64,000 bases of DNA from an uncultured Chloroflexia bacterium (GTDB taxonomy: Bacteria > Chloroflexota > Limnocylindria > Limnocylindrales > CSP1-4): contig CAVTHS010000002.1 of assembly GCA_963734535.1 (NCBI GenBank), positions 1 to 64,000 on the forward strand. Direction: 5' to 3'. Positions within the stretch are counted from its first letter, which is position 1. Each line of letters starts with the position of its first letter. The notes under the pieces are model-generated. The model did not search any database and was not told the origin of the DNA. It saw only the letters and a program-made list of their open reading frames with translations. A program made the position numbers and the translations under genes. Below, piece after piece: positions 1 to 58,772 of this stretch.

Positions 1-381
1 GGCCGGCATCAGGATCGCCGCCGCGAACTGGTTTGCTTCGATCTCCTCGGCGTCAGTCGCCGCGCTCGAGGTGGCGTCCCGGAAGTTGAGCCGCACATGG
101 TCCAGAACCAGCGGTCGACCTTTGTGGAGGACGAGGTGGGCGACCTCGTGAGCCACGGTGAACCGTTGGCGGCGGGGAGCGTGGAGGTCATTCACGCCGA
201 TCATTACCGAGTCGACGTCCCGGAGGAGTAGGCCGGATACGTCGCGGTCGAGGCGCTCGCGGATGATCTGGGCTCCGAGATACTCGGCCACGGCCTCAAC
301 ATCGATCGGCACATTGCCGGCGTGCCCCAATTCGCGGAGGACCCGCTCCGCCTCTGCCTCTGCTGCTCTACGCGTCGCCAT
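1..381 (-). CDS. ImmA/IrrE-family Zn metallopeptidase (CapP-like), 3' end runs off the window
   Basis: Not in the ORF track; read by hand from the ATG at 381: MATRRAAEAEAERVLRELG...PIDVEAVAEYLG...RQRFTVAHEVAHLVLH...EEIEANQFAAAILMPA. Has the HExxH motif and the E-x-x-A-N-x-F-A motif of Peptidase_M78. Confidence 0.9.
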   Translation of the reverse strand, partial: MATRRAAEAEAERVLRELGHAGNVPIDVEAVAEYLGAQIIRERLDRDVSGLLLRDVDSVMIGVNDLHAPRRQRFTVAHEVAHLVLHKGRPLVLDHVRLNFRDATSSAATDAEEIEANQFAAAILMPA

Positions 382-698
382 CGGATTGCTCCTTCTGGGC
401 TCGTCGCATGATTCGCAAGAAGGGTTCCTGATCGGCGGGCGACAAGCCGCGCAAGCGTCGGTCAGGCTTCACATCTGGTTCTGGGTGGGCCGGTGGAAGG
501 AGATCTGCCGGCTTGACCTCGAGGACGCGGGCGAACTCCATCAGGAGATGGAGGGACAACCGCTGGCGGCCCCGCTCGATGTTCGCGACGGACGTCCGGC
601 TGAGGCCGACCCCCGGCGCGACCTCGGCCTGGCTCATCCCCTTTCGCCTGCCGGGCAAGGCGGAGCCGGTCGCCGAACTCCCGGTAGAACGGTTCCAC
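368..698 (-). CDS. XRE-family HTH transcriptional regulator (CapH-like), one frameshift near 640
   Basis: MEPFYREFGDRLRLARQAKG (ORF 462..698) joins MSQAEVAPGVGLSRTSVANIERGRQRLSLHLLMEFARVLEVKPADLLP (ORF 368..769). Its stop overlaps the peptidase start. Confidence 0.85.
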
Positions 699-874
699 GG
701 GCGGAGTATGCCACTGACAGGTGATGTGGATGGCGTGTGGACAACTTTGTGTGTGTCACCAACTGTCACCCATCAGTCCGTTCGACTTGACAACGGCGCT
801 CGCCGAGGCGCAGATTCGACCCTGACGACGCGACCGCGCCGCGACAGCCCCGCGCTCCAGGAGACCCCATCGCC
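699..874. promoter_or_regulatory. Divergent promoter region between the HTH/peptidase pair and the CBASS operon
   Basis: Less GC-rich spacer, with a TGTCACC direct repeat at 754-760 and 764-770 and TTGACA at 787-792. Confidence 0.45.
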
Positions 875-1978
875 GTGCTTCCCCTGAACAACCATTTCGA
901 CGGCCTGCTCAAGATTCTGAACCCGCCCGAGGACCGGCAGGCCCTGGCCGGGAAACTGCCGCCCATCGTTCGCGACCACCTCGAGAAGTCCGACCTGATC
1001 GAGACCGTCGCGGAGTCACCCATCTCCCGCCTCGCCGGGTCGTACGGCCGCCGGACCGTCTCGGGCGACATCCACGACGTCGACATCATCGTCTTCGTCG
1101 CCGAGTCATACCGCCGCAAGCCGGTCGAGGAAGTCCTCGACGACCTGACCGCGGCCCTGAAGGACCTCGAGGTCGAGGGCTACGAGAAGGGCGACGTCAA
1201 GACCAACCGCAAGCAGCGCCGGTCGTGCCATGTCGAGTTCCGCCATCCAGGCAGCGACGTCCCGGCCTTCCACATCGACGTCGTGCCGGTCATCCGGCCG
1301 GGCGACGACCCCAACGTGATCCTGGACATCCCGGACCGCGAATGGACGCGATGGGTGCCGACGCAACCACTCGGCTACGGCCAGCGCCTGAGCGCCCAGA
1401 ACGCCGAATGGGACGGCGAGGTCGTGCCCGTGATCCGCGAGTTCAAGCAGATCAAGTTCCACAACATGCCCAAGGGTCGGCCGAAGTCGTACTGGTCCGA
1501 GGTCATGGTCTACCACGTCTTCGACGAGGGTCTGGTACCGAAGACGCGGTACCTGGGCGGCTCGTACAACCGGCCCGAGCGCATGCTCCAGGTGCTTCGC
1601 GCGATCCTCGCCAAGTACGGCCAGAACACCGCCGAGGGCCTGGACACGCCGTACGTGGCGGATCCCTGCCTCGGCCACAACATCGCCTTCGCCTGGCCCA
1701 AGGAGGACTACGTCCGCTGGGTCAAGATGCTGACCGACGCGATCGAGACGGTCGCCGCGGTCGAGAACTCGACGGATCGCGACGCGTCCACTAAAGCCTG
1801 GAAGAAGGTCTTAGGCGACGACGTGTTCGAGCCCGACGAAGAGGAGGTCGCCGCGAAGGCCGCCCAGGCCCGGGCCATCGCCACGGCCGCCAAGGTGGCC
1901 GGCGGGGCGATCGTCTCTGCTGCGACCGCAGCGAAGGGCATCGCCGTGCCCACACATCGGGCATACGGCGACCGGTGA
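875..1978 (+). CDS. cGAS/DncV-like nucleotidyltransferase (CD-NTase, SMODS) of CBASS
   Basis: Pol-beta NTase motif GSYGRRT...HDVDII, third Asp in HIDVVP, then PKSY and VADP motifs. Ala-rich tail ending THRAYGDR. Lies upstream of an E2-like gene and a SAVED effector. Confidence 0.9.
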   Translation: MLPLNNHFDGLLKILNPPEDRQALAGKLPPIVRDHLEKSDLIETVAESPISRLAGSYGRRTVSGDIHDVDIIVFVAESYRRKPVEEVLDDLTAALKDLEVEGYEKGDVKTNRKQRRSCHVEFRHPGSDVPAFHIDVVPVIRPGDDPNVILDIPDREWTRWVPTQPLGYGQRLSAQNAEWDGEVVPVIREFKQIKFHNMPKGRPKSYWSEVMVYHVFDEGLVPKTRYLGGSYNRPERMLQVLRAILAKYGQNTAEGLDTPYVADPCLGHNIAFAWPKEDYVRWVKMLTDAIETVAAVENSTDRDASTKAWKKVLGDDVFEPDEEEVAAKAAQARAIATAAKVAGGAIVSAATAAKGIAVPTHRAYGDR

Positions 1979-2490
1979 ACCGCTTCCAGCTGGGCGTCCA
2001 GCCACCATCGATGGTGGACCAGGAGATGGCCATGCTCCGGCACCGCGGGGTCTTCACGAAGATCCGGCGTCACCCGTGGGTCTGGCGCGGCCTGGTGAGG
2101 ACGCACGCGGGAGGACAGGTCTACGTGATCGACATCGACGCTGGTGCCCGCCCGGGTGACGCCGTGAGGATCTGGTGCCGCGAGCCGATGCTCGTGGCGC
2201 TCGGCGACACGGGTCGTGCGCCGCACACGTTCGCGGACGGCTCCCTGTGCGTGAACAAGGAGCCGCCGTCGCGCTTCTTGTTCCTGGCCGAGACGGTCGT
2301 CCCGTGGATCTACGCGTGGCTGTACTTCTACGAGAGGTGGCTCGAGACCGGCGATTGGCTTGGGCCTCAAAGCCCCGGGCACGAGGTCGACCGGGCGTCG
2401 AGCGAGCAGCCGGTCAAGGACGAGCCGCGCTCGGAGGGGCAGGATCCGATCGACTCGGCGCGAACCAGGAATCGCGGAACGGCAGCATGA
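1975..2490 (+). CDS. Stand-alone E2-like (ubiquitin-conjugating fold) CBASS ancillary protein
   Basis: APHTFADGSLCV...LAETVVPWIYAWLYFYERWLETGDWLG matches the PH..dg.LC / T++PW...WL..YE.W..TG.W.G pattern of type II-short CBASS E2 proteins. GTGA overlap with the CD-NTase stop. Confidence 0.8.
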   Translation: MNRFQLGVQPPSMVDQEMAMLRHRGVFTKIRRHPWVWRGLVRTHAGGQVYVIDIDAGARPGDAVRIWCREPMLVALGDTGRAPHTFADGSLCVNKEPPSRFLFLAETVVPWIYAWLYFYERWLETGDWLGPQSPGHEVDRASSEQPVKDEPRSEGQDPIDSARTRNRGTAA

Positions 2491-3645
2491 GCCGCCCGAT
2501 CCGTGACTTCCTCTCGCACGAGCACGGCGACCGACCGGCGCTCGTCCGGCTCGAGACCGACATGCGCCGGCGCGGCCTGTCGTCGTGGCGCGACCGCAAG
2601 GACCAGCACCGCGGCGTCGCGACCGACCCGGCCGTCCTGAAGGCGATCAGGTCCGACACCGACGGCTTCGTGATCTACGGCACCAAACGGATCCTCAACA
2701 GTGCCTACGTCTGGGAGCACGAGTGGGAGCCCGCCTACGTCCGCAACCAAGCCGAGTCGGGCGCCGACCATCCGTTCCCGTACCCGCTGATCCCGATCTT
2801 CGCGGGCGCCGGTGTCGCAGACCTCAAGGCCGCTGCCATCCGCTTCAAGCAGCCGATCCCGACGACATTCAACGGGGAGCGGCTGACGCCCGGCCCCGCC
2901 GGACGGCTGGTTATGGCGAACTACCTGCTGCGGACGGCGCTGACGCGACGGGCCGCCGTGGCGCCCCACGGGCCGCTCCGGCTGCACCTGAGCACGTTCG
3001 CGGTGGCAGACGACCTGGAGGCGGACGTGCTCGTAGACTGGTCACCGGAGTTCGCCCCGGGCTCCGTGCCGCCCTGGCCAGATCTGCTTGTGGCTCGCGA
3101 CGACCTCGCCGCCGAGTTGGCTCGCCCGGGACGTGGGCTCGAGATCTCGGTCCAGGCCCGCCTCGGGCCAGCATTCGCATTCGGGCACGGATTCCCGCAC
3201 GTGTCGAAGATCCCGATCACCGCGGGCGGCGGGTGGCAACTCGGCGACAAGGAGGACCCAGCCCTCGTCGCTGCGACCGACGTCGCGCTCGCCGGCGGCG
3301 ATCCGCGGGTCGCGGTCGTCGAGGTATCGTTCGCCCGGACGGTGACGGTCGCTGTCGATCGCGGCCTCATTGCCCTTGGGATCGCGCCGTCACAGCGGCT
3401 CTCGCTGGCCTACGGGCCGGGCGTCGACCACGTGGATGCTGCGGTCGCGGCAGGCTGCGACAGCGGCCTTCGGGCACCGGGTCAAGCGGCTGCGCGACGA
3501 GGGCGTGACCGAGACGCATGTGTTCCTGGCCGGACCCGCGCCGCTGGCCTTGCTACTCGGGGCGTCCATAAACGCCGGACCAGCGATGACCCTCTACCAC
3601 ACGGTCGACGGCGAGTACGTCCGCTCGGTGCGGTTGCCCGCCTGA
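2487..3645 (+). CDS. TIR-SAVED CBASS effector, one frameshift near 3450
   Basis: ATGA overlap at 2487. N-terminal TIR: FLSH, SWRD, SAYVWEHEW with the putative catalytic Glu. C-terminal SAVED: ARLGPAFAFG, then HVFLAGPAPLALLLG and GEYVRSVRL in ORF 3370..3645. Confidence 0.85.
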
Positions 3646-3664
3646 CCATTTCCGGCGGCACCAG

Positions 3665-3886
3665 TCATGGCGCCCGCCACTGGTGGAGGACGCTCTCGCC
3701 ACAGTCGCGGCAGACCCAGGTGCTCCGGTACGACTTCGGCTGCCCGTCGGCGAGGATCGGGATCGTCCTGTCCATCCGAACCCAGCGCTCGCCGTGGCGA
3801 TACGAGAGGGTCCGCTCTACGTCGAGTAGGTTTGGCTGGTGCTTGCGTCGGCAAATACCACTGATTTCACTGCCACAATCGATCAC
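3665..3886 (-). CDS. Small hypothetical protein, possible Zn-binding (C-x3-H...CRDC)
   Basis: 73-aa ORF from a GTG at 3886, convergent on CBASS. No recognised family. Confidence 0.3.
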   Translation of the reverse strand: MIDCGSEISGICRRKHQPNLLDVERTLSYRHGERWVRMDRTIPILADGQPKSYRSTWVCRDCGESVLHQWRAP

Positions 3887-3973
3887 CAGACGGATGGTTG
3901 TAGACGAGAGTCGGATTCGGCCTCTCGATCGCGGTTGGCGCCTGGCCTGCCGTGGATTCCTCGGTGCCAATTC

Positions 3974-4004
3974 TGACAGCAGATTTGACAGCAGATTGAC
4001 AGCA
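3974..4004. repeat. Three TGACAGCA direct repeats, candidate integrase arm-type sites of an att junction
   Basis: Copies at 3974-3981, 3986-3993 and 3997-4004, about 70 bp beyond the tRNA-His 3' end. Confidence 0.6.
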
Positions 4005-4031
4005 ACTGGGCGGTCTTCGGCGACACCGAGC

Positions 4032-4058
4032 GACCCTCCGCGTGGTCCGCGGAGGGTC
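4032..4058 (-). terminator. Hairpin downstream of tRNA-His
   Basis: Perfect 11-bp stem GACCCTCCGCG / CGCGGAGGGTC with a 5-nt loop and no clear U-tract. Confidence 0.55.
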
Positions 4059-4073
4059 ATTCGTGCCAGGAAG

Positions 4074-4150
4074 TGGGGTGGCCTACGGGGCTTGAACCCG
4101 CAACCTTCGGAGCCACAATCCGATGCTCTACCGATTGAGCTAAGGCCACC
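4074..4150 (-). tRNA. tRNA-His(GTG)
   Basis: Reverse complement GGTGGCCTTAGCTCAATCGGTAGAGCATCGGATTGTGGCTCCGAAGGTTGCGGGTTCAAGCCCCGTAGGCCACCCCA. Has the G-1:C73 pair, GTG anticodon, TTC T-loop and an encoded CCA. Confidence 0.97.
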
Positions 4151-4371
4151 GCGGTCGCAGCGCGCGGCACGGCCGGGACCGGCGCGCGGGACTGGCGGAG
4201 TATACGCGAGTGCGAGACCGGGGAGGGTGATGCCATTCGAGGGTGATGCCGGCCGTCGAGTCCGACTGGCACGTCGGGAGCTCGATGCGCGCGTTCGCGG
4301 TCTCGGGACGGCACGGCCGGTTGCTCCGCAGCGGGCCGTGAGGAGGTCTTCGCGACGCTCGCGCTCGCCGG

Positions 4372-14740: not shown

Positions 14741-16067
14741 TCAGGCCTCCTCGACGCGGAGGTCGAGGAAGTGGGTGGCGCAGCTGATGCAGGGGTCGTA
14801 GCTCCGGATCATCTGCTCGAGGCGGAGGGTTGCCTCCGCGTGCGGCAGGTCCAGGACCTGCCCGGCCGCGACGACGAGATCCGCCTCGATGGCGGCCTGG
14901 TTCTGGCTGGTGGGCGGCACGATCTGGGCATGCCGGATCCGCCCGGACTGGTCCACCTCGTAGCGGTGGAAGAGGAGGCCGCGCGGGGCCTCCGTCGCCC
15001 ACGCCGCGACGCCGGGGCGGCTCTGCCATGCCACCAGCGGTTCGGACGGGACCCGGTAGGCGTCGATGATGTCGATCGCCTCGGCACAGGCGTGCACGAG
15101 CTCCACCGCGCGGGCCACGATCGACGCGTAGATGTTGGTCCGGATCAGCTCGGCTCATGCCGGTGGCGGCAAGCGCCTCTTTGGCGAGCGGATGGAGCTG
15201 CTCGCCGGCCAGCACGACGCGTGCCGCGGGGCCGAGAAGGTAGACACCCTTCCCGTCGATGGACCGGGCGTGGAGCGCGTTCGAGCCCTCCACCTGGAAC
15301 TCCTCGAAGGCATCCCGCCACGCGGTGGGCGACAGGTCCACGCCGTCCGAGCTGACGATGCGCCCGTCGTTGAACGGGTACTCGCCGGCATGCCGCAGGC
15401 TGACCAGGCGTGGCTCGCGTGCGAACGCCGGCATCGGGAAGCCCGCGACGAGCTTGACCGTCTCCTGGGCGAACGCGAGGGACTCCTCGAGGGCCGCGCG
15501 GTGCTCCATGAGCTCGCTGACGCGCGGGACGTGGCTCCAGCCGCCCACCCGGACGCTGACCGGGTGGATCGGCCGGCCCCCGAGGATCTTGATGAGGTGG
15601 TTGCCGGCCTTCTTCATCTTGAGGGCCTGCTCCACGAGCGGCCGGTGATCGGCCGCCATGGTGATGCCGCTGTCGTATCCCAGGAAGTCAGGCGCGTGGA
15701 GGAAGAAGATGTGGAGCGAGTGGCTCTCGATCCACTCGCCGCAGTAGAACAGCCGCCGGAGCGCTCGCGACTGCGGGTCGATGCGGACCCCGAAGAGGTC
15801 CTCGAACCCGTGGGCCGCGCTCATCTGGTACGCGACGGGGCAGATGCCGCAGATCCGGGCGACGATGTCGATGACCTCGTCGGGGGTCCGCCCCACGACG
15901 AGCTGCTCGAAGTAGCGCGGCGTCTCGAAGATGCCGAGGCGCGCCTCGAGGACCTCGCCATCCTTCACTCGCAGCCGGAGCGAGCCTTCGCCCTCGACCC
16001 GCGTGAGCTCATGAACCTCGTACAGGCGCTCGTCCACGACCTTGTCCGTCGTCGTTCCGCGGCTCAT
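14741..16067 (-). CDS. hydA: Group 3b [NiFe] sulfhydrogenase large (alpha) subunit, frameshift near 15150
   Basis: TRVEGEG, L1 motif RICGICP, EAPRG, and L2 motif DPCISCATH followed by a cleavable tail. Confidence 0.92.
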
Positions 16068-16912
16068 GCCTTTCCTCCCCGCGGCGACGGCTCGGCCGCC
16101 GTCGTGCCGCGCCCGCTCCGGGCGCCGCCGAGCTCCGTCACCATGCTGCGGAACGGCTCCGAGTACGCGGTGAACCCGGCAAAGAGCCGCCCGATCTCCT
16201 CCCGGGGCCGGTCGCCGGCCATCTGGAGGTGACGGGTGAGCCCCGCCGCGTTTGCCTGCTCGCGCGGCCCGAAGCAGCCGTAGCAGCCACGGCCGAAGCG
16301 CGGGCAGATGGCGCCGCACCCGGTCTGGGTGACCTGGCCGAGGCAGGGGATCCCCTTGCTGACCATGACGCAGACGACGCCGCGCCGCTTGCACTCCATG
16401 CACACGGCCTCGTCCCGCAGCTGTGGGCGGCGACCGGTGGTGAGCGCGGTGAGGAGCTCGACCAGCTGGCCGGGATCGATCGGACAGCCGCGCAGCTCCG
16501 CGTCCACGATCACGTGCTCGGAGATGGGGGTCGAGCGGGCAAGCGACGCGATCCACTCGGGGTTCGTGTAGACGCCCATGCGGAACGCATCGTGGTCGCC
16601 CCAGTTGCGGAGCGCCTGGATGCCGCCCGCCGTCGCGCAGGCGCCGATGGTGACGAGGAACCGGGTCCTCCGGCGAAGCTCGACGATCCGCTCGAGGTGG
16701 GCCGGCTCCGAGACCGACCCTTCGACGAACAGGACGTCGTAGGGTCCCGAGGAGCGGGCGGACGTCGCCTCCGGGAAGTCGACGATATCGAAATGCTCGA
16801 CGACGGAGAGCAGCTCGTCCTCGAGGTCGAGGAGGGTGAGCTGGCAGCCATCGCACGACGCGAACTTGACGACGCCGACGCGGGGACGTGCCGCGACGGG
16901 GGCGTGAGCCAT
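16064..16912 (-). CDS. hydD: Group 3b hydrogenase small (delta) subunit
   Basis: FASCDGCQL, VEGS, GACATAGG, GCP, and a Cys-rich C-terminus (CMECK, CLG, CGAICP, CYGC). Confidence 0.92.
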   Translation of the reverse strand: MAHAPVAARPRVGVVKFASCDGCQLTLLDLEDELLSVVEHFDIVDFPEATSARSSGPYDVLFVEGSVSEPAHLERIVELRRRTRFLVTIGACATAGGIQALRNWGDHDAFRMGVYTNPEWIASLARSTPISEHVIVDAELRGCPIDPGQLVELLTALTTGRRPQLRDEAVCMECKRRGVVCVMVSKGIPCLGQVTQTGCGAICPRFGRGCYGCFGPREQANAAGLTRHLQMAGDRPREEIGRLFAGFTAYSEPFRSMVTELGGARSGRGTTAAEPSPRGGKA

Positions 16913-18900
16913 CAGATGCCCTCCCGGCCGAAGGTGTCACCGAGCTGCGCGATCGAGAAGACCGGGCCGTCACGGCAGACGAAGTACTTGCCCATCTGGC
17001 AGTGGCCGCACAGGCCGATCCCGCATTCCATGTGCCGCTCCAGCGTCACGTGGATGCGGGACGCGGAAACGCCCCGGCCGGCGAGCGTCGTGGACGCCGC
17101 CTGCATCATCCGCTCCGGACCGCAGACGAAGGCGATCATGTTCGAGCCATCCCAGGCCGCCTGGTCGAACAGGTGGGTCACGATGCCCACTCGTCCGGAC
17201 CACTCGGGCCCGGCGCGGTCCACGGTCAGGCTCACCTCGATGCCGTCGCGCTCGGCCCACCGCTCGAGCTCGTCGCGATAGAGCAGGTCGGCCGGCGTCC
17301 GGGCGCCGTAGAAGAGCTTCACGTCCCCGAACCTGCGACGGTCGGCGACGATCGCGTGCAGGACCGGCCGCAGCGGCGCGAGGCCGATTCCGCCGGTCAC
17401 GATGACCAGGTCGCGCCCGACCGCCCGGTCGAGCGGCCAGTTGTTGCCCAGCGGGCCGCGAAGGCCCACCTGGTCGCCCACCTGGAGGGCGCACATCGCC
17501 TTGGTGGCCGGGCCGGCGCCGCGGATCGTGAGCTCGATCCCGTCCGCGAGGAAGCGGCTGATCGAGATCGGGAGGGGTGGGAAGCCCGGCAGCGCGACCA
17601 TGGCGAACTGCCCGGTGCTGCCGTGGCTGAACGCCGGGTCGACGCCGGTGAGGGTGAGCGTCGTGGTGTCGGCCGTCTCCGACTTCGTGCTGACGACGCG
17701 AGCGGTCACGAAATCGTTCGGGGTCGCCGCGACCGGCTCGACGAGGCGTGACTCGGGGGAGAGCGGGACGGGCGGCGCGATCGCGTTCAGCTCGTCGCGC
17801 ACGTCGATCCCGACCGGGCACCACGTGATGCAGCGGCCGCAGCCGACGCAGCCGGACGTACCGAACTGGTCCCACCAGGTCGCGAACTTGTGGGTCAGCC
17901 ATTGCCGGTAGCGATCCCGCGGCCGGGCCCGGAAGCTGCCGCCGGCCACCTTCGCGAAGCCGGGGCTGAAGCAGCTGTCCCAGCTCCGGCTGGCGAGCGC
18001 CGCATCGCCGCTCATGTCCGTGGACTGCGTCAGTGTCGTGCAGAAGCAGGTTGGGCAGGCCAGCGTGCAGTTCCCGCAGGTGATGCAACGTTCCGCAACC
18101 TGGGCCCAGCGCGGATGGTCGAGCTGGGCAAGGAGCCGGTCGTGGAGGCCGTCCGCGGGGATGGGGTCCCCGATCCGGGCGCGCACCGCCGCGACCGTGG
18201 CCGCCACCCCGTACTGCTCGGCGGCCGTCGCGGGGCGCAGGGGGAGGCGCTCCAGCACGGCGCGGCCGGCCGGTGTGCCGGCGTCGACCAGGAATCCGGC
18301 GTCGAGCTCGGTCAGGGAGAGGTCGAACCCCTCGGTGACCTCGGGACCGGTTCCCATCGACGTGCAGAAGCACGTCGATGCCGACGTGGTGCACTGGACC
18401 GCGACGACGAACACGTTCGCGCGCCGCACCATGTAGTCGGGATCGATGAACTCGGTGCCGATCAGGACCCGGTCCTGGACGGCGAGCGCTGCGATCTCGC
18501 AGGCGCGGGCGCCGAGGAAGGCGAGCTTCGGGGCGACGGCCTGCTCGGGCTCGAACGAGACCTTGTGGCCGTCATGGCTGGAGCGGGTGAGCGGGATCAG
18601 GGCGGGGAAGGTCCATTTCTTCCACGCGGTGGGTCCCACCACGTAGCCGAACAGGCGCTCGTCCCCGCGCCTCCGAAGCCGATACCGGCCCGGCGCCTGC
18701 TCGTCGCCCCAGCCGCGCGGCAGCTGCTCCACCGACGAGATGTCGTCGTAGACGATGGAGCCGTCGGCCACGGTGGGTCCGATCAGGCGTCGACCGTCCT
18801 CGCGGAGGAGGTCGAAGAGGACCTGGAGATCCGCGAGCGCAAGGAAGCCCGGGCCATCGATGGCGGGACGGCCGCTCCGCGGCGGGCGTGAGACCGGCAT
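16912..18900 (-). CDS. Fused group 3b hydrogenase beta (4Fe-4S) + gamma (FAD/NAD(P)-binding) subunit
   Basis: N half is HydB/AsrA-like (CITCGNCTLACPTCFC, CVGCGRCITWCP). C half is HydG/AsrB-like (RGPLG, GGIGLAP, CGPERMM, CGIGLCGHC). TGATG overlaps at both ends. Confidence 0.9.
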   Translation of the reverse strand: MPVSRPPRSGRPAIDGPGFLALADLQVLFDLLREDGRRLIGPTVADGSIVYDDISSVEQLPRGWGDEQAPGRYRLRRRGDERLFGYVVGPTAWKKWTFPALIPLTRSSHDGHKVSFEPEQAVAPKLAFLGARACEIAALAVQDRVLIGTEFIDPDYMVRRANVFVVAVQCTTSASTCFCTSMGTGPEVTEGFDLSLTELDAGFLVDAGTPAGRAVLERLPLRPATAAEQYGVAATVAAVRARIGDPIPADGLHDRLLAQLDHPRWAQVAERCITCGNCTLACPTCFCTTLTQSTDMSGDAALASRSWDSCFSPGFAKVAGGSFRARPRDRYRQWLTHKFATWWDQFGTSGCVGCGRCITWCPVGIDVRDELNAIAPPVPLSPESRLVEPVAATPNDFVTARVVSTKSETADTTTLTLTGVDPAFSHGSTGQFAMVALPGFPPLPISISRFLADGIELTIRGAGPATKAMCALQVGDQVGLRGPLGNNWPLDRAVGRDLVIVTGGIGLAPLRPVLHAIVADRRRFGDVKLFYGARTPADLLYRDELERWAERDGIEVSLTVDRAGPEWSGRVGIVTHLFDQAAWDGSNMIAFVCGPERMMQAASTTLAGRGVSASRIHVTLERHMECGIGLCGHCQMGKYFVCRDGPVFSIAQLGDTFGREGI

Positions 18901-27964: not shown

Positions 27965-29616
27965 GCCATCACCTCTGCCGGCTCGATCGCGCAGACGCCG
28001 GCGGGACAGACCCGGTCCACGATGTGCGCCAGGTACTCGTCCCGGAAGTAGCGGAGCGTGCTGAAGATCGGGTTGGGCGCCCCCTGGCCGAGCCCGCAGA
28101 GCGACGTCTTCTGGATGATCCCGGCCAGGCGCTCCAGCTGGGCGAGGTCGTCCATGGTTGCCTCGCCACGGGTGATCTGGTCGAGGAGCATCCAGAGCTG
28201 CGTCGTCCCGACACGGCAGGGGACGCACTTGCCGCATGACTCGTCGCGGCAGAAGTCCTGGAAGTACTTGGCGACGTCGACCATGCAGGACGTGTCGTCC
28301 ATCACGATCATGCCGCCGGACCCCATGAACGAGCCGAGCTCGATGAGCGACTCGTAGCTGACCGGCATGTCGAGGTGCTCTGCGGGGATGCAGCCGCCGG
28401 ACGGGCCGCCGGTCTGGACGGCCTTGAACGGCCGGCCGTCGATGATCCCGCCGCCGATGTCGTAGACGATCTCGCGCAGCGACATCCCCATCGGGACCTC
28501 GACGAGGCCGGTGTTGACGACGCGGCCGGCCAGCGCGAAGACCTTGGTCCCCTTGCTCTTGCCGAGGCCGATCGCCGCGTACCATTCCGGACCCTTGCGC
28601 AGGATCGTGGGCACGCTGGCGAATGTCTCGACGTTGTTGATGAGGGTCGGGCAGTCCCACAGGCCCTGGACCGCCGGGTAGGGCGGCCGGGGACGCGGCG
28701 TGCCGCGACGGCCTTCGACGGACGCGATCAGCGCGGTCTCCTCTCCGCACACGAAGGCGCCGGCGCCGAGCCGGACCTGCACGTCGAAGTTGAAGGAGGT
28801 GTCGGCGATCCCCGCGCCCAGGTACCCGGCGCGCTGGGCCAGCCGGATCGCCGTTCGGAGGCGGGCGATCGCCAGCGGGTACTCGGCACGGCAGTAGACG
28901 TAGCCCTCGGTGGCATGCACCGCGAACGCCGCGATGGCCATCCCCTCCAGGATTCGGAACGGGTCGCTCTCGAGGACGCTGCGGTCCATGAACGCGCCGG
29001 GGTCGCCCTCGTCCGCGTTGCAGATGACGTACTTCTGGGTGCCCTGTGCCTTGGCGACGGTGGTCCACTTGAGGCCGGTCGGGAACCCGGCGCCCCCACG
29101 GCCGCGCAGGCCGCTGCGGGTGATCTCCTCGCGAACCTCGGAGGAGGTCATCTCGGCGAGCACGCGCTTGAGGGCCTCGTAGCCGCCACGCTCGAGATAG
29201 TCGTCGAGGCTCTCGGGGTCGACGCGACCCATGTTCTCGGTCGCGACCCGCAGCTGCTTCTCGAAGAAGGGTCCCTGCGGCGCTCGGGTGTCGTCCGGCG
29301 TGACCTTCTCGAGGGCCGCGACGATGCCACTGACGTCGTCCGGCGTTACGTGGGAGAAGAGCTGGCCGGTCTCGGCGATCTCGACGAGCGGGCCGGCCGC
29401 GCACAGGCCCAGGCAGCCGACGCGCTTGATGGCCACGTCCGTGAGGCCCGCCTCGGCGGTCTTCTCCCCGAGGCGCAGCGTGATGTCGTGGGCCTGGGCC
29501 GACATGCAGCTGGCCGCCTCGCACACGTACGCGGACGCGCGGGTCGGGCCTTCGTGGACTTCTTCCGTGATCACGCGGCGGCGGATGGGCCGCGCCGCGG
29601 CTGGCATCTCGCTCAC
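27961..29616 (-). CDS. hoxF: Hox diaphorase FMN/NAD-binding subunit (NuoF-like)
   Basis: [45 protein letters not shown]. Confidence 0.95.
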
Positions 29617-30105
29617 ATTGCCTCCAGTTGGGCAACCAGGTCGCCCACGTTGACCTTGCCCCTGACGTCGCCGTCGACGATGACTGCGGGCGCCAGGCTG
29701 CACGCACCGAGACAGCGCGCCGTCAGCACCGAGACCTTGCCGTCGGTCGGTCGTCTCTTTCGGCTTGACGTGAAGCGCGCGGTCGATGCCGGCCAGGATG
29801 TCCTTCGCGCCATTGATGTAGCAGGCGGTCCCCGTGCACACGACGCAGGTGTGCTCGCCCTGCGGCTTGAGCGTGAAGAACGAGTAGAAGGTCGCGACGC
29901 CATACACGCGTGAGTGGGGAACCCCGAGGGTGTCGCCGACGTAGTTCAGCGCGTCGGTGTCGAGATATCCGAACGCTTCCTGCGCGGCATGCAGCGCTTC
30001 GATCAGGGCCGGTGGGCGATCCCCCAGGCGGCGCATCCGCGTCTCGACGATCTTCCAGCGCTTGTCGTCACTGGGGGCCGGTGGCTTGTGGTACTGGATG
30101 GGCAT
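29613..30105 (-). CDS. hoxE: Hox subunit E (NuoE-like 2Fe-2S), frameshift near 29750
   Basis: [28 protein letters not shown], then [10 protein letters not shown] in ORF 29613..29903. Confidence 0.92.
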
Positions 30106-30599
30106 TGGCCCCCCTCCAATCGGGTGCGGAAGGCGACGACCGGCCAGCAACGAGCCGGCCGCGTTGTTCACGAGGTTGGGAGGACCCACTGGTCAACCAC
30201 GACGAGCATAGAAAACACGGGCCGCGCCGCCGGGTGCCGCACTTCCCGGTTCTGGGGGGCCGCTTCGCCCGTGTGCGGCCCGGGCCGCTGGGGGGTCATG
30301 CGGTGGCGGCTACGCAGGCGATCGCCAAGTCCGGGAAGCCGCCCTGCCCATGAGAGGCGGCAGTTGGGGCCCGCCGCCGCCCGTGCCGGCCGCCCAAGCG
30401 GGGCCGCCGTCCCGTGACGTGCCGGCCGCCCAAGCGGGGCCGCCGTCCGACGGCGGTGCCGTGCCACGATTCCGCCGCGGGCCCGGCCCGCGCCGGCTCG
30501 CGCGGGGCGCGCCGGTGCCGCCGCCGCCCTCTCGGGGAGTCGCCCGATCGGCGATCGCCGTGGCAAACGCCCGGTAGTCGCGATACGGCGCGGGCGCGT

Positions 30600-52893: not shown

Positions 52894-53037
52894 CCGGCAG
52901 CCGTCAACCAGCGTCCCGGGTGAAGCCCGGCAGGCCACGTGCCCGCCGGGCTTCACCTTTTCTGCTCGCCGGCGTCTCGAGTCCGGCCATTCGAACAGGT
53001 GGTCGGTTCGACGTTCCGGGCGTATACTCCCGCTCCC

Positions 53038-57764
<4,727 letters not shown>

Positions 57765-57800
57765 CCCGGCAGCTCGAGAGCCTGCCAGGGCCGGCTCCGG

Positions 57801-58772
57801 TCAGGCAGCCAGGCCGAAGAAGCCGCGCGCCGCCTCGCGCAGCCGGTGCCTCGGGCGCCCTGGACCCGGGTCGGCATGTCCGCTCGGCCGGCCGCGCCAG
57901 GCGCGGGACATCGCGACCAGCCGCGCGGCCCACGCCCGCCACGTCGCGGGCCGCAGGAACCACGCCGGGTCCGGCTTGAGCCAGAGCGATGGGACGAGGG
58001 CCCACAGGAAGACCAGGTAGTCGAGGCGCGCCGGCCGGGGGAGGCCGAACAGGACGGAGAGCTGGACCAGCGTGAGCGGGAGTGTGGCGAGCGTCAGCAG
58101 CGCGGCGACGGCAAGGAACAGGACGCCGTGCAGGCGTGCCTTCGGGGCAAGGATCGGCAGGAAGGCGATCGGGATCCATTTCATGGCAACGGCCAGGGCC
58201 CAGAGGATGCCGCCGGTCCGCGGACCCGTGAACCGGGCCCCCCACAGGACCAGGACGAGTACGAGGTTGATGTTCCCGGTGTCGAGATTGGCGAAGGCCG
58301 GGAACGCGAGCAGGAGCGCCGTCACGGCCGTCGCGAGCGGATGGCGCCGATAGGCCCACGCCACGGTCCACAGGAGCAGCACGATCGTCCCGCCGCGCCA
58401 CACGAACCAGGCCACGTCCCACGGGAGGAGCGCCCACGGCGCGAAGACAGGAAGCAGCCACGGCGCATAGACGTAGGGCATGAACGGGCTTGCGGGGTGG
58501 TACGGATCGCCGCCATTGAGCCAGATCCGGACGGCGGCCCAGTAGGCCCGTGCGTCAACGCCTGCAAGCTCGCCGCGCGCGAACATCCCGGCCAGGCCGA
58601 TCCCACCGGCCACCGCGAGCAGGAGGATCGCGACAAGCCGGCGCCGGTCGCGAAGGTGGGAGGCCTGGCGTCGAAGGGCACGTCGAAGGACGCCCCCGCG
58701 CCTGCGCGTCGGGCGGCCGACGAGCCCGCCCGGGCGCACATCCACCGGCCCCGTCCCAATCCCCGATGCCAT
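57801..58772 (-). CDS. GT87/DUF2029 membrane glycosyltransferase
   Basis: DARAYWAA...GGDPY...YVYAPW...GNIN...AMKWIP. Confidence 0.8.
   Translation of the reverse strand: MASGIGTGPVDVRPGGLVGRPTRRRGGVLRRALRRQASHLRDRRRLVAILLLAVAGGIGLAGMFARGELAGVDARAYWAAVRIWLNGGDPYHPASPFMPYVYAPWLLPVFAPWALLPWDVAWFVWRGGTIVLLLWTVAWAYRRHPLATAVTALLLAFPAFANLDTGNINLVLVLVLWGARFTGPRTGGILWALAVAMKWIPIAFLPILAPKARLHGVLFLAVAALLTLATLPLTLVQLSVLFGLPRPARLDYLVFLWALVPSLWLKPDPAWFLRPATWRAWAARLVAMSRAWRGRPSGHADPGPGRPRHRLREAARGFFGLAA

Follow-up and report, generated by a model that had tools for sequence, protein, structure and literature searches.

The first 3645 bases of a 64,000-nucleotide stretch of DNA from an uncultured Chloroflexia bacterium (NCBI GenBank assembly GCA_963734535.1, contig CAVTHS010000002.1, positions 1 to 64,000 of the forward strand) quite likely carry an anti-phage operon of the CBASS type (a system of antiphage signalling based on cyclic oligonucleotides), in which a CD-NTase cyclase, an E2 protein and a TIR-SAVED effector form an E2-only (type II-short) system under CapH/CapP control, placed in a variable stretch beside a tRNA-His gene. 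The whole stretch, which opens contig C2 of the assembly and covers 64 kb of it (G000:C2:1-64000), will be called the window, and its positions 1-3645 the locus. An initial annotation, made from the sequence alone, had described three overlap-coupled genes at 875-3645 lacking any E1 or JAB partner, and had named the ensemble an E2-only CBASS with TIR-SAVED and CapH/CapP-like control. Positions and families of the three genes proved correct, as did the overlaps read from the sequence, GTGA (1975-1978) between cyclase and E2 and ATGA (2487-2490) between E2 and TIR-SAVED, by which the three genes appear to be translationally coupled; PADLOC and Pfam profiles match all five genes, so that the naming holds as well. 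Neither the open reading frames (ORFs) nor a Pfam scan revealed an E1 (ThiF-like) or a JAB gene in 1-4149, the DNA left of capP being missing from the contig, and none was seen in the flanks of close relatives. The only Prok-JAB gene of the assembly is situated on contig C13 beside rhodanese-ThiF, cysteine desulfurase and Rrf2 genes, a neighbourhood which marks it as part of sulfur-carrier housekeeping.

The cyclase is recognised by the Pfam family SMODS (2.5e-10) and by the PADLOC Cyclase models PDLC00822 (4.5e-43) and PDLC00810 (5.3e-31), and the residues of its catalytic set (G55, S56, D68, D70 and D135), together with G365 in its tail, are invariant among 40 aligned cyclases. As a single sequence searched against solved proteins it finds P. 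aeruginosa CdnD as its best match (1.9e-7). The profile of the 40-sequence family (A4) matches BcCdnD, the enzyme of Bacillus cereus, at 1.1e-49 over residues 5-311, followed by E. cloacae CdnD (3e-28), P. aeruginosa CdnD (1e-24) and E. coli CdnC (1e-15); no clade-G enzyme among the solved proteins was reached by this profile at 1e-10. An AlphaFold2 model of the cyclase (predicted local distance difference test, pLDDT, 86.5; predicted template modelling score, pTM, 0.81) shows a helix at 322-338, strands at 340-342 and 345-347 and a disordered tail, and a Foldseek search with this model places CdnD structures at the top (TMt 0.70-0.73) and the Serratia CdnG in 16th position, so the modelled protein has a CD-NTase fold nearest to that of CdnD. 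BcCdnD, the best profile match, itself resembles both clades C and D, according to its description (PMC13424991). The suggestion of the initial annotation that the cyclase may belong to a divergent clade with an uncharacterised signal is thus not upheld: with a cA3 synthase as profile match and a fold nearest to CdnD, the enzyme is best classed, by profile and fold ranking, as CdnD/BcCdnD-like. Activation by a protease tripwire (PMC12991175) was also considered for this cyclase and rejected, as the model lacks a disordered central loop of about 30 amino acids; its pLDDT is at least 72 in each 10-residue block before residue 330.

Because of the match to BcCdnD and because of the TIR-SAVED, NucC and Cap4-like effectors with which cyclases of this family are partnered, the signal is fairly probably a cyclic trinucleotide, cA3 (3'3'3'-cAAA) being the most likely one. 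BcCdnD makes 3'3'3'-cA3, and this product activates Cap4 and NucC, as reported in that paper (PMC13424991). When the contact residues given there are mapped onto our cyclase profile alignment, 10 out of 11 nucleotide contacts of BcCdnD are, by our own count, conserved or conservatively replaced in the window cyclase: S56, R59, D68, D70, R116 and S117 correspond to BcCdnD S53, R56, D73, D75, R111 and S112, and D135, T163, K191 and Y206 to D123, T150, K178 and F194. The sole difference concerns Lid2, where Tyr168 stands in the place of His155. Related cyclases are found paired with TIR-SAVED, with NucC (which bears the Pfam name DUF6602 and matches solved NucC at 1e-44) or, in one locus, with a Cap4-nuclease-SAVED protein. 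A system composed as described here could also use another messenger, for example a different cyclic tri- or dinucleotide such as cAAG or a 2'-5'-linked molecule; the next-best solved relative, E. cloacae CdnD, makes cAAG, the Lid2 residue differs from that of BcCdnD in our own mapping, SAVED domains accept varied ligands, and one preprint describes a TIR-SAVED also sensing c-di-AMP. We nevertheless consider a signal other than cA3 somewhat unlikely, given that the closest characterised enzyme is a cA3 maker and that eight related loci carry NucC, which is activated by the BcCdnD product (both according to PMC13424991). The solved relative of the effector, 7qqk, is likewise reported to respond to cA3.

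The E2 protein is encoded by an ORF of its own, unfused to an E1 domain, and matches the PADLOC model E2 PDLC00876 (1.8e-22), while no Pfam family matches it. Its presumed active-site cysteine, C92, lies in a 'DGSLC' motif and is kept together with H84 in all 45 E2 sequences of the family; H136 is invariant in the E2s of 8/8 close relatives, and K148 is located in the C-terminal tail. The AlphaFold2 model (pLDDT 84) finds the Serratia E2 (8yjy_B/8hsb_B) as its best Foldseek match, with a TM of 0.60-0.68, and eukaryotic UBC folds follow far behind. For the Serratia system, it is in print that the E2 trims and conjugates the cyclase, as the initial annotation had stated: according to the two reports (PMC12948482; 10.1101/2022.05.25.493364), C101 and H87 remove the residue that follows G406 of the cyclase, the E2 forms a thioester with the cyclase and passes it on to K159, H152 acts as a pH-sensitive helper, and the cyclase has an extra C-terminal helix and a three-stranded sheet, which bind the E2. 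By position, based on a partial alignment together with the published description, H84, C92, H136 and K148 of the window protein correspond to Serratia H87, C101, H152 and K159. The window cyclase ends in ...HRAYG365-DR, comparable to Y405-G406-E407 of the Serratia enzyme, and an end consisting of [YFH]G and one to six further residues before the stop is found in 58 of 74 cyclases, the other 16 being cut, broken or longer-tailed. Moreover, the C-terminal helix and small sheet of the cyclase model resemble the published E2-binding motif. By analogy, we infer covalent cyclase-E2 chemistry for the window system as well, and E2-only control may, as a tentative extension, also govern a BcCdnD-like trinucleotide cyclase lineage that swaps TIR-SAVED, NucC and nuclease-SAVED effectors.

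Two further observations concern the E2. The window E2 shares 53-55% identity with those of the loci L003, L004, L008, L010, L011 and L012 (67% with L013), and the same close relatives are 81-89% identical to the window in the cyclase and about 85% in the effector; the divergence of the E2 is evenly spread and the key residues are retained. An E2 that diverges much faster than its partners is what one would predict if the contact surface between E2 and cyclase were a target of phages. The cyclase relatives P0066, P0071, P0082, P0084 and P0098 have 486-524 amino acids and are matched over their first ~350 residues. They probably represent fusions of a cyclase with an E2, which agrees with the match of positions 448-541 of the PADLOC model PDLC00816 to the window E2.

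The effector gene is present in the deposited sequence as two pieces, since its ORF is split at 3452-3454, and yet its TIR and SAVED domains as well as the putative catalytic residue E79 can all be found. The N-terminal piece matches TIR_2 (5.3e-6) and positions 17-294 of the 404 positions of the PADLOC model SAVED_TIR PDLC02012, and the C-terminal piece matches SAVED (3.2e-9) and positions 318-385 of the same model. Intact homologues have 385 amino acids and are 74-86% identical to the window effector. A profile of 30 effector sequences matches the solved TIR_SAVED protein 7qqk over nearly its full length (1.3e-21), followed by Cap4 SAVED domains; E79 aligns with the Glu at the catalytic position of the 7qqk TIR domain and is invariant in 30/30 sequences. 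The 7qqk protein is reported to be a cA3-activated, filament-forming NADase attached to a type III CRISPR system, and both it and the PADLOC SAVED_TIR model set derive from CRISPR-associated SAVED proteins. One might therefore think of an accessory effector of type III CRISPR, or of a stand-alone effector that merely happens to lie beside a cyclase, the more so as the name of the top-scoring PADLOC model, SAVED5--SAVED_TIR, sets it apart from the 'Effector' models of CBASS. This explanation is highly improbable, as the ATGA overlap couples TIR-SAVED to the E2 gene and 26 loci, from hosts of 38-69% G+C, show the same order of cyclase, E2 and TIR-SAVED.

Upstream of the operon and on the opposite strand, with a mutual overlap of 14 nt, lie the two putative control genes. 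The capP product matches Peptidase_M78 (4.1e-17) and the PADLOC capP model (1.4e-25) and contains a HEVAH motif in its translation; the capH product matches HTH_3 (5.3e-11) and the PADLOC capH model (2.2e-11). CapH and CapP are known to occur with type I, II and III CBASS (Lau et al., 10.1101/2022.04.27.489752). In the divergent region between capH and the cyclase gene, TTGACA at 787-792 is invariant in 9/9 aligned relatives, and two TGTGGA repeats can be seen at 725-730 and 736-741; these elements may be candidates for the promoter and for the CapH operator, respectively. Scans for promoter, terminator and inverted-repeat consensus sequences in 600-4200 and 680-900 found nothing.

While the parts of the system can be read from the sequence, its working steps are transferred from what is known of the respective families. 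In the proposed sequence of events, CapH would repress the divergent promoter until DNA damage activates CapP, which would then cleave CapH and thereby raise expression. The Cys92/His84 pair of the E2 would cut off the two residues that follow Gly365 of the cyclase, and the new C-terminus would form a thioester on Cys92 and subsequently be passed to a lysine, which might prime or activate the cyclase. The CdnD/BcCdnD-like enzyme would then make a cyclic trinucleotide, most likely 3'3'3'-cAAA; its binding by the SAVED domain of TIR-SAVED would go along with filament assembly, and the TIR domain, using Glu79, would destroy NAD+, leading to growth arrest or death of the infected cell.

The two frameshifts of the locus deserve particular attention. 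Within the TIR-SAVED gene, for which the initial annotation had correctly pointed out a frameshift near 3450, the window reads GCGGCAGGCTGCG, which is one base more at 3452-3454 than in five relatives according to both protein and DNA alignments; frame 0 extends to ~3452 and frame +1 continues from ~3454. The frameshift of capH and the truncation of capP by the contig start had escaped that annotation. The capH break is an extra T in 642-644: in the protein alignment, the first 20 residues and the remainder lie in different frames; on the DNA level, the window has GCGAAAGGGG where 3/3 relatives have GCG-AAGGGG. In relatives, capH opens with MEPFYREFGDRLR..AKG-MSQAEV in a single frame, and the true start of the window gene is the GTG listed in Table 1.

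In order to judge such breaks against the quality of the whole assembly, we have to consider the result of a frame-switch scan (Viterbi decoding of the phase of third-position G+C, with in-frame stops penalised; 2921 coding segments), in which a candidate was defined as a segment after which a different frame takes over on the same strand, the first frame remaining open for >150 nt further. Throughout the assembly, 311 candidates were found, 264 of them insertion-like and 43 deletion-like (~6:1). Four candidates fall into the window, and three are confirmed by Pfam profile coordinates running on in another frame: the NiFe hydrogenase large subunit (14741-17045, minus strand; profile positions 1-80, then 385-508), a NuoE-like 2Fe-2S ferredoxin (29613-30192, minus strand; 5-101, then 97-142) and the Lhr helicase (52924-57979, plus strand; DEAD_assoc, then WH2/WH3_Lhr). 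The fourth has no Pfam match. Both breaks of the CBASS locus are +1 insertions in short runs, and downstream of each the sequence is ~90% like that of intact relatives, showing no second lesion, stop or drift. Because the assembly is rich in indels, biased towards insertions and affected in housekeeping genes too, both breaks can with good probability be attributed to systematic insertion errors in the assembly, and the organism probably possesses an intact CBASS system.

Several points speak against this view of the locus and should be given here together. Taken literally, the deposited sequence specifies an effector and a repressor that are both broken. A search of public sequencing runs gave one weak match, with 12% of the words, and three runs placed on the window yielded short contigs that span neither 643 nor 3452, which makes the argument for an artefact an indirect one. 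Two breaks in 3.6 kb exceed the 3-15 candidates per 100 kb detected per contig, although it should be noted that the scan missed both CBASS breaks and consequently undercounts. A split TIR-SAVED occurs at differing positions in three relatives from other assemblies (P0018, L010:8504-8660 and L037:3546-4730), the lesion in L010 being a one-base deletion ~22 nt from the break of the window; this could mean either that a toxic effector is naturally lost or that errors are common in those assemblies too. Furthermore, the clade assignment of the cyclase is a ranking of profile and fold matches rather than a placement in a tree with labelled references, and what is said on the product, on the bond between E2 and cyclase, on NADase activity and on the CapP/CapH switch derives from analogy with related proteins.

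Taken as real, the frameshifts would describe a decaying CBASS, in which first the effector and then the repressor was knocked out and cyclase and E2 were left without an output. The closeness of the two breaks in the deposit, the broken TIR-SAVED genes of P0018, L010 and L037 and the sporadic occurrence of the island, which here lies at a contig end, would fit such a decay. We regard it as unlikely in view of the hundreds of frame-switch candidates with their 6:1 excess of single-base insertions, housekeeping genes included, to which class both CBASS breaks belong; no further damage follows downstream, and neither the cyclase nor the E2 is broken or has lost any of its key residues. Programmed frameshifting was rejected, as relatives have an uninterrupted ORF of 385 amino acids and the breaks of other relatives are sited differently. 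If the assembly-error explanation is preferred, as we do, general caution is advisable with all broken genes of this assembly, which should not be taken as pseudogenes without reads.

How common is the arrangement? Scanning with patterns taken from family alignments yielded 73 related loci, five from species-representative genomes and 68 from metagenomes, in which genes were called by six-frame searches with hidden Markov models built from our own alignments. The five representative-genome loci all belong to metagenome-assembled genomes (MAGs) of Chloroflexota, Limnocylindrales included, and the 68 metagenome loci range from 34 to 69% G+C. An E2 directly follows the cyclase in 54 of the 58 loci whose downstream sequence amounts to 450 nt or more; of the four exceptions, L035 has its E2 slightly further on and the other three have truncated cyclases. 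Of the 51 loci in which the effector could be assessed, 26 have TIR-SAVED, 16 a different SAVED fusion, eight NucC and one an effector of unknown kind. CapP is found upstream in 12 of the 44 loci for which 1 kb or more of upstream sequence is present, and CapP, E2 and TIR-SAVED occur together in 7 of the 24 loci that have both flanks. After merging cyclases of at least 95% identity, these proportions become 41/44 (E2), 19/39 (TIR-SAVED), 9/31 (CapP) and 6/18 (full set). In a tree of 50 full-length cyclases, from which rows of <320 codons or with stops were excluded, the window falls into a well-supported clade of nine rows together with Chloroflexota MAGs, and every member of this clade has TIR-SAVED and capP wherever the respective flank is present; in the rest of the tree, the three kinds of effector are interleaved. 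When 1.84 billion cluster representatives were searched exhaustively, 267 relatives of the cyclase were retrieved at E <=1e-3 and 37 at 1e-30, some of them 440-524 amino acids long and probably cyclase-E2 fusions as well.

These counts do not support the initial annotation, according to which E2-only, TIR-SAVED and CapH/CapP-like control form an uncommon combination; with the frequencies given above, the combination of CapP, E2 and TIR-SAVED is a recurrent cassette and not an oddity. Both CapH/CapP with type II CBASS (10.1101/2022.04.27.489752) and TIR-SAVED in type II CBASS are moreover in print, the latter being called 'common' there by one preprint. E2-only systems make up 616 of 2199 type II CBASS, as cited in published work. 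The addition that the combination is uncommon 'especially in this lineage' was a fair one: a related cyclase (E <=1e-10) is present in 8 of 301 genomes of the class, a tally that counts the source assembly (G000) and includes two unpublished genomes (G296 and G112) on which nothing else here depends, and in none of the nine other genomes of the genus. The system is therefore sporadic within its own class. On two contigs of a single Chloroflexota MAG, L003 and L006 each carry capP-capH-cyclase, with cyclases 88% and 93% identical to that of the window; these may be either two copies or strain variants that were binned together.

The features of the locus are listed in Table 1. The source assembly (3.2 Mb in 14 contigs) has a completeness of 89.9% and a contamination of 7.1%. 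Since base 1 of the window is base 1 of the contig, capP is cut, and any genes to its left remain out of sight because the contig starts inside it.

Table 1 Features of the CBASS locus and its right-hand border (window positions)
Feature	Position	Strand	Remarks
capP-like M78 (IrrE/ImmA-type) metallopeptidase gene	1..381	-	C-terminal part lost at contig start
capH-like XRE helix-turn-helix repressor gene	368..698	-	GTG start at 698; extra T in 642-644 run
Divergent intergenic region capH/cyclase	699..874		Presumed promoter/operator
CD-NTase, 367 aa, CdnD/BcCdnD-like	875..1978	+	SMODS, PADLOC Cyclase
Standalone E2, 171 aa	1975..2490	+	PADLOC E2; H84, C92, H136, tail K148
TIR-SAVED effector gene	2487..3645	+	Two frames; extra base at 3452-3454
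tRNA-His(GTG)	4074..4149	-	ARAGORN; right-hand limit of strain-specific stretch

Five genomes of the same genus share the tRNA-His gene and the DNA to the right of it, including a DinB-like gene and an ABC transporter, and the same five have no matches to 3646-4073 or to the CBASS genes. In two same-genus genomes the DNA left of tRNA-His is non-syntenic, so that no left boundary of the island can be taken from them. The G+C content is 0.64-0.72 at the locus vs 0.71-0.73 for the contigs, and the neighbours of the cassette in relatives comprise restriction-modification genes of types I and II as well as an Abi_C gene and an integrase. The CBASS locus is a mobile cassette for defence that occupies a variable site beside tRNA-His; the contig break has removed its left end. 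Between the effector gene and tRNA-His lies a small ORF (3665-3830, minus strand) with a CxxC-like end and without Pfam or PADLOC match, which resembles a stretch ~1.5 kb upstream of the capP of L006 (68% over 47 amino acids).

A literature search found no bench study of an E2-only CBASS with TIR-SAVED. The sole E2-only system studied at the bench depends on a clade-G cGAMP synthase, and the search gave no bench work on E2-only control of a trinucleotide-type cyclase. The locus and its ~50 distinct relatives document E2-only CBASS on a trinucleotide-type cyclase, and the compact set of cyclase, E2 and TIR-SAVED would suit a test of the mechanism in which the 'E2 does everything' outside clade G.

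Four known systems come closest to the locus. The E2-CBASS of Serratia marcescens (CdnG and E2; 8hsb/8yjy; Yan et al. 10.1101/2022.05.25.493364; Xiao et al. PMC12948482) likewise has a standalone E2 directly after the cyclase and neither E1 nor JAB, the same Cys/His/His/Lys set in the E2, and a cyclase ending in an aromatic residue and Gly with a short removable tail behind a C-terminal helix and sheet. Although its E2 is the nearest fold to that of the window, the two are no more than 23-24% identical in the fold alignment, and His84 of the window lies 8 residues before the Cys vs 14 in the Serratia E2. The Serratia cyclase belongs to clade G, to which, according to Xiao et al. (PMC12948482), 73.65% of E2-CBASS cyclases are assigned, and makes cGAMP, whereas the window cyclase is CdnD/BcCdnD-like with a predicted trinucleotide product. 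BcCdnD of Bacillus cereus (9sa4), described in PMC13424991, is the closest solved cyclase by profile; its catalytic residues and the majority of its nucleotide contacts recur in the window cyclase. The cA3 that it produces activates a SAVED-nuclease and NucC, kinds of effectors also seen with relatives of the window cyclase. That system, however, includes Cap2 (an E1-E2 fusion) and Cap3 (JAB), both of which the window system lacks, and BcCdnD is devoid of the extra C-terminal E2-binding module, the alignment stopping at about residue 311 of the 367 of the window protein; Lid2 carries His in BcCdnD and Tyr in the window cyclase. The TIR-SAVED of Microbacterium ketosireducens (7qqk; 10.1101/2022.05.04.490601) has the same order of TIR followed by SAVED and the conserved Glu in the same column (E79); unlike it, the window protein has a CD-NTase and an E2 as its coupled partners, and is split by a frameshift in the deposit. 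Finally, as in the published CapH/CapP systems (10.1101/2022.04.27.489752), genes for a helix-turn-helix repressor and an M78 peptidase lie upstream of the operon on the other strand and have the promoter region in common with it, with the differences that in the window the contig end truncates capP and the deposited capH carries a frameshift.

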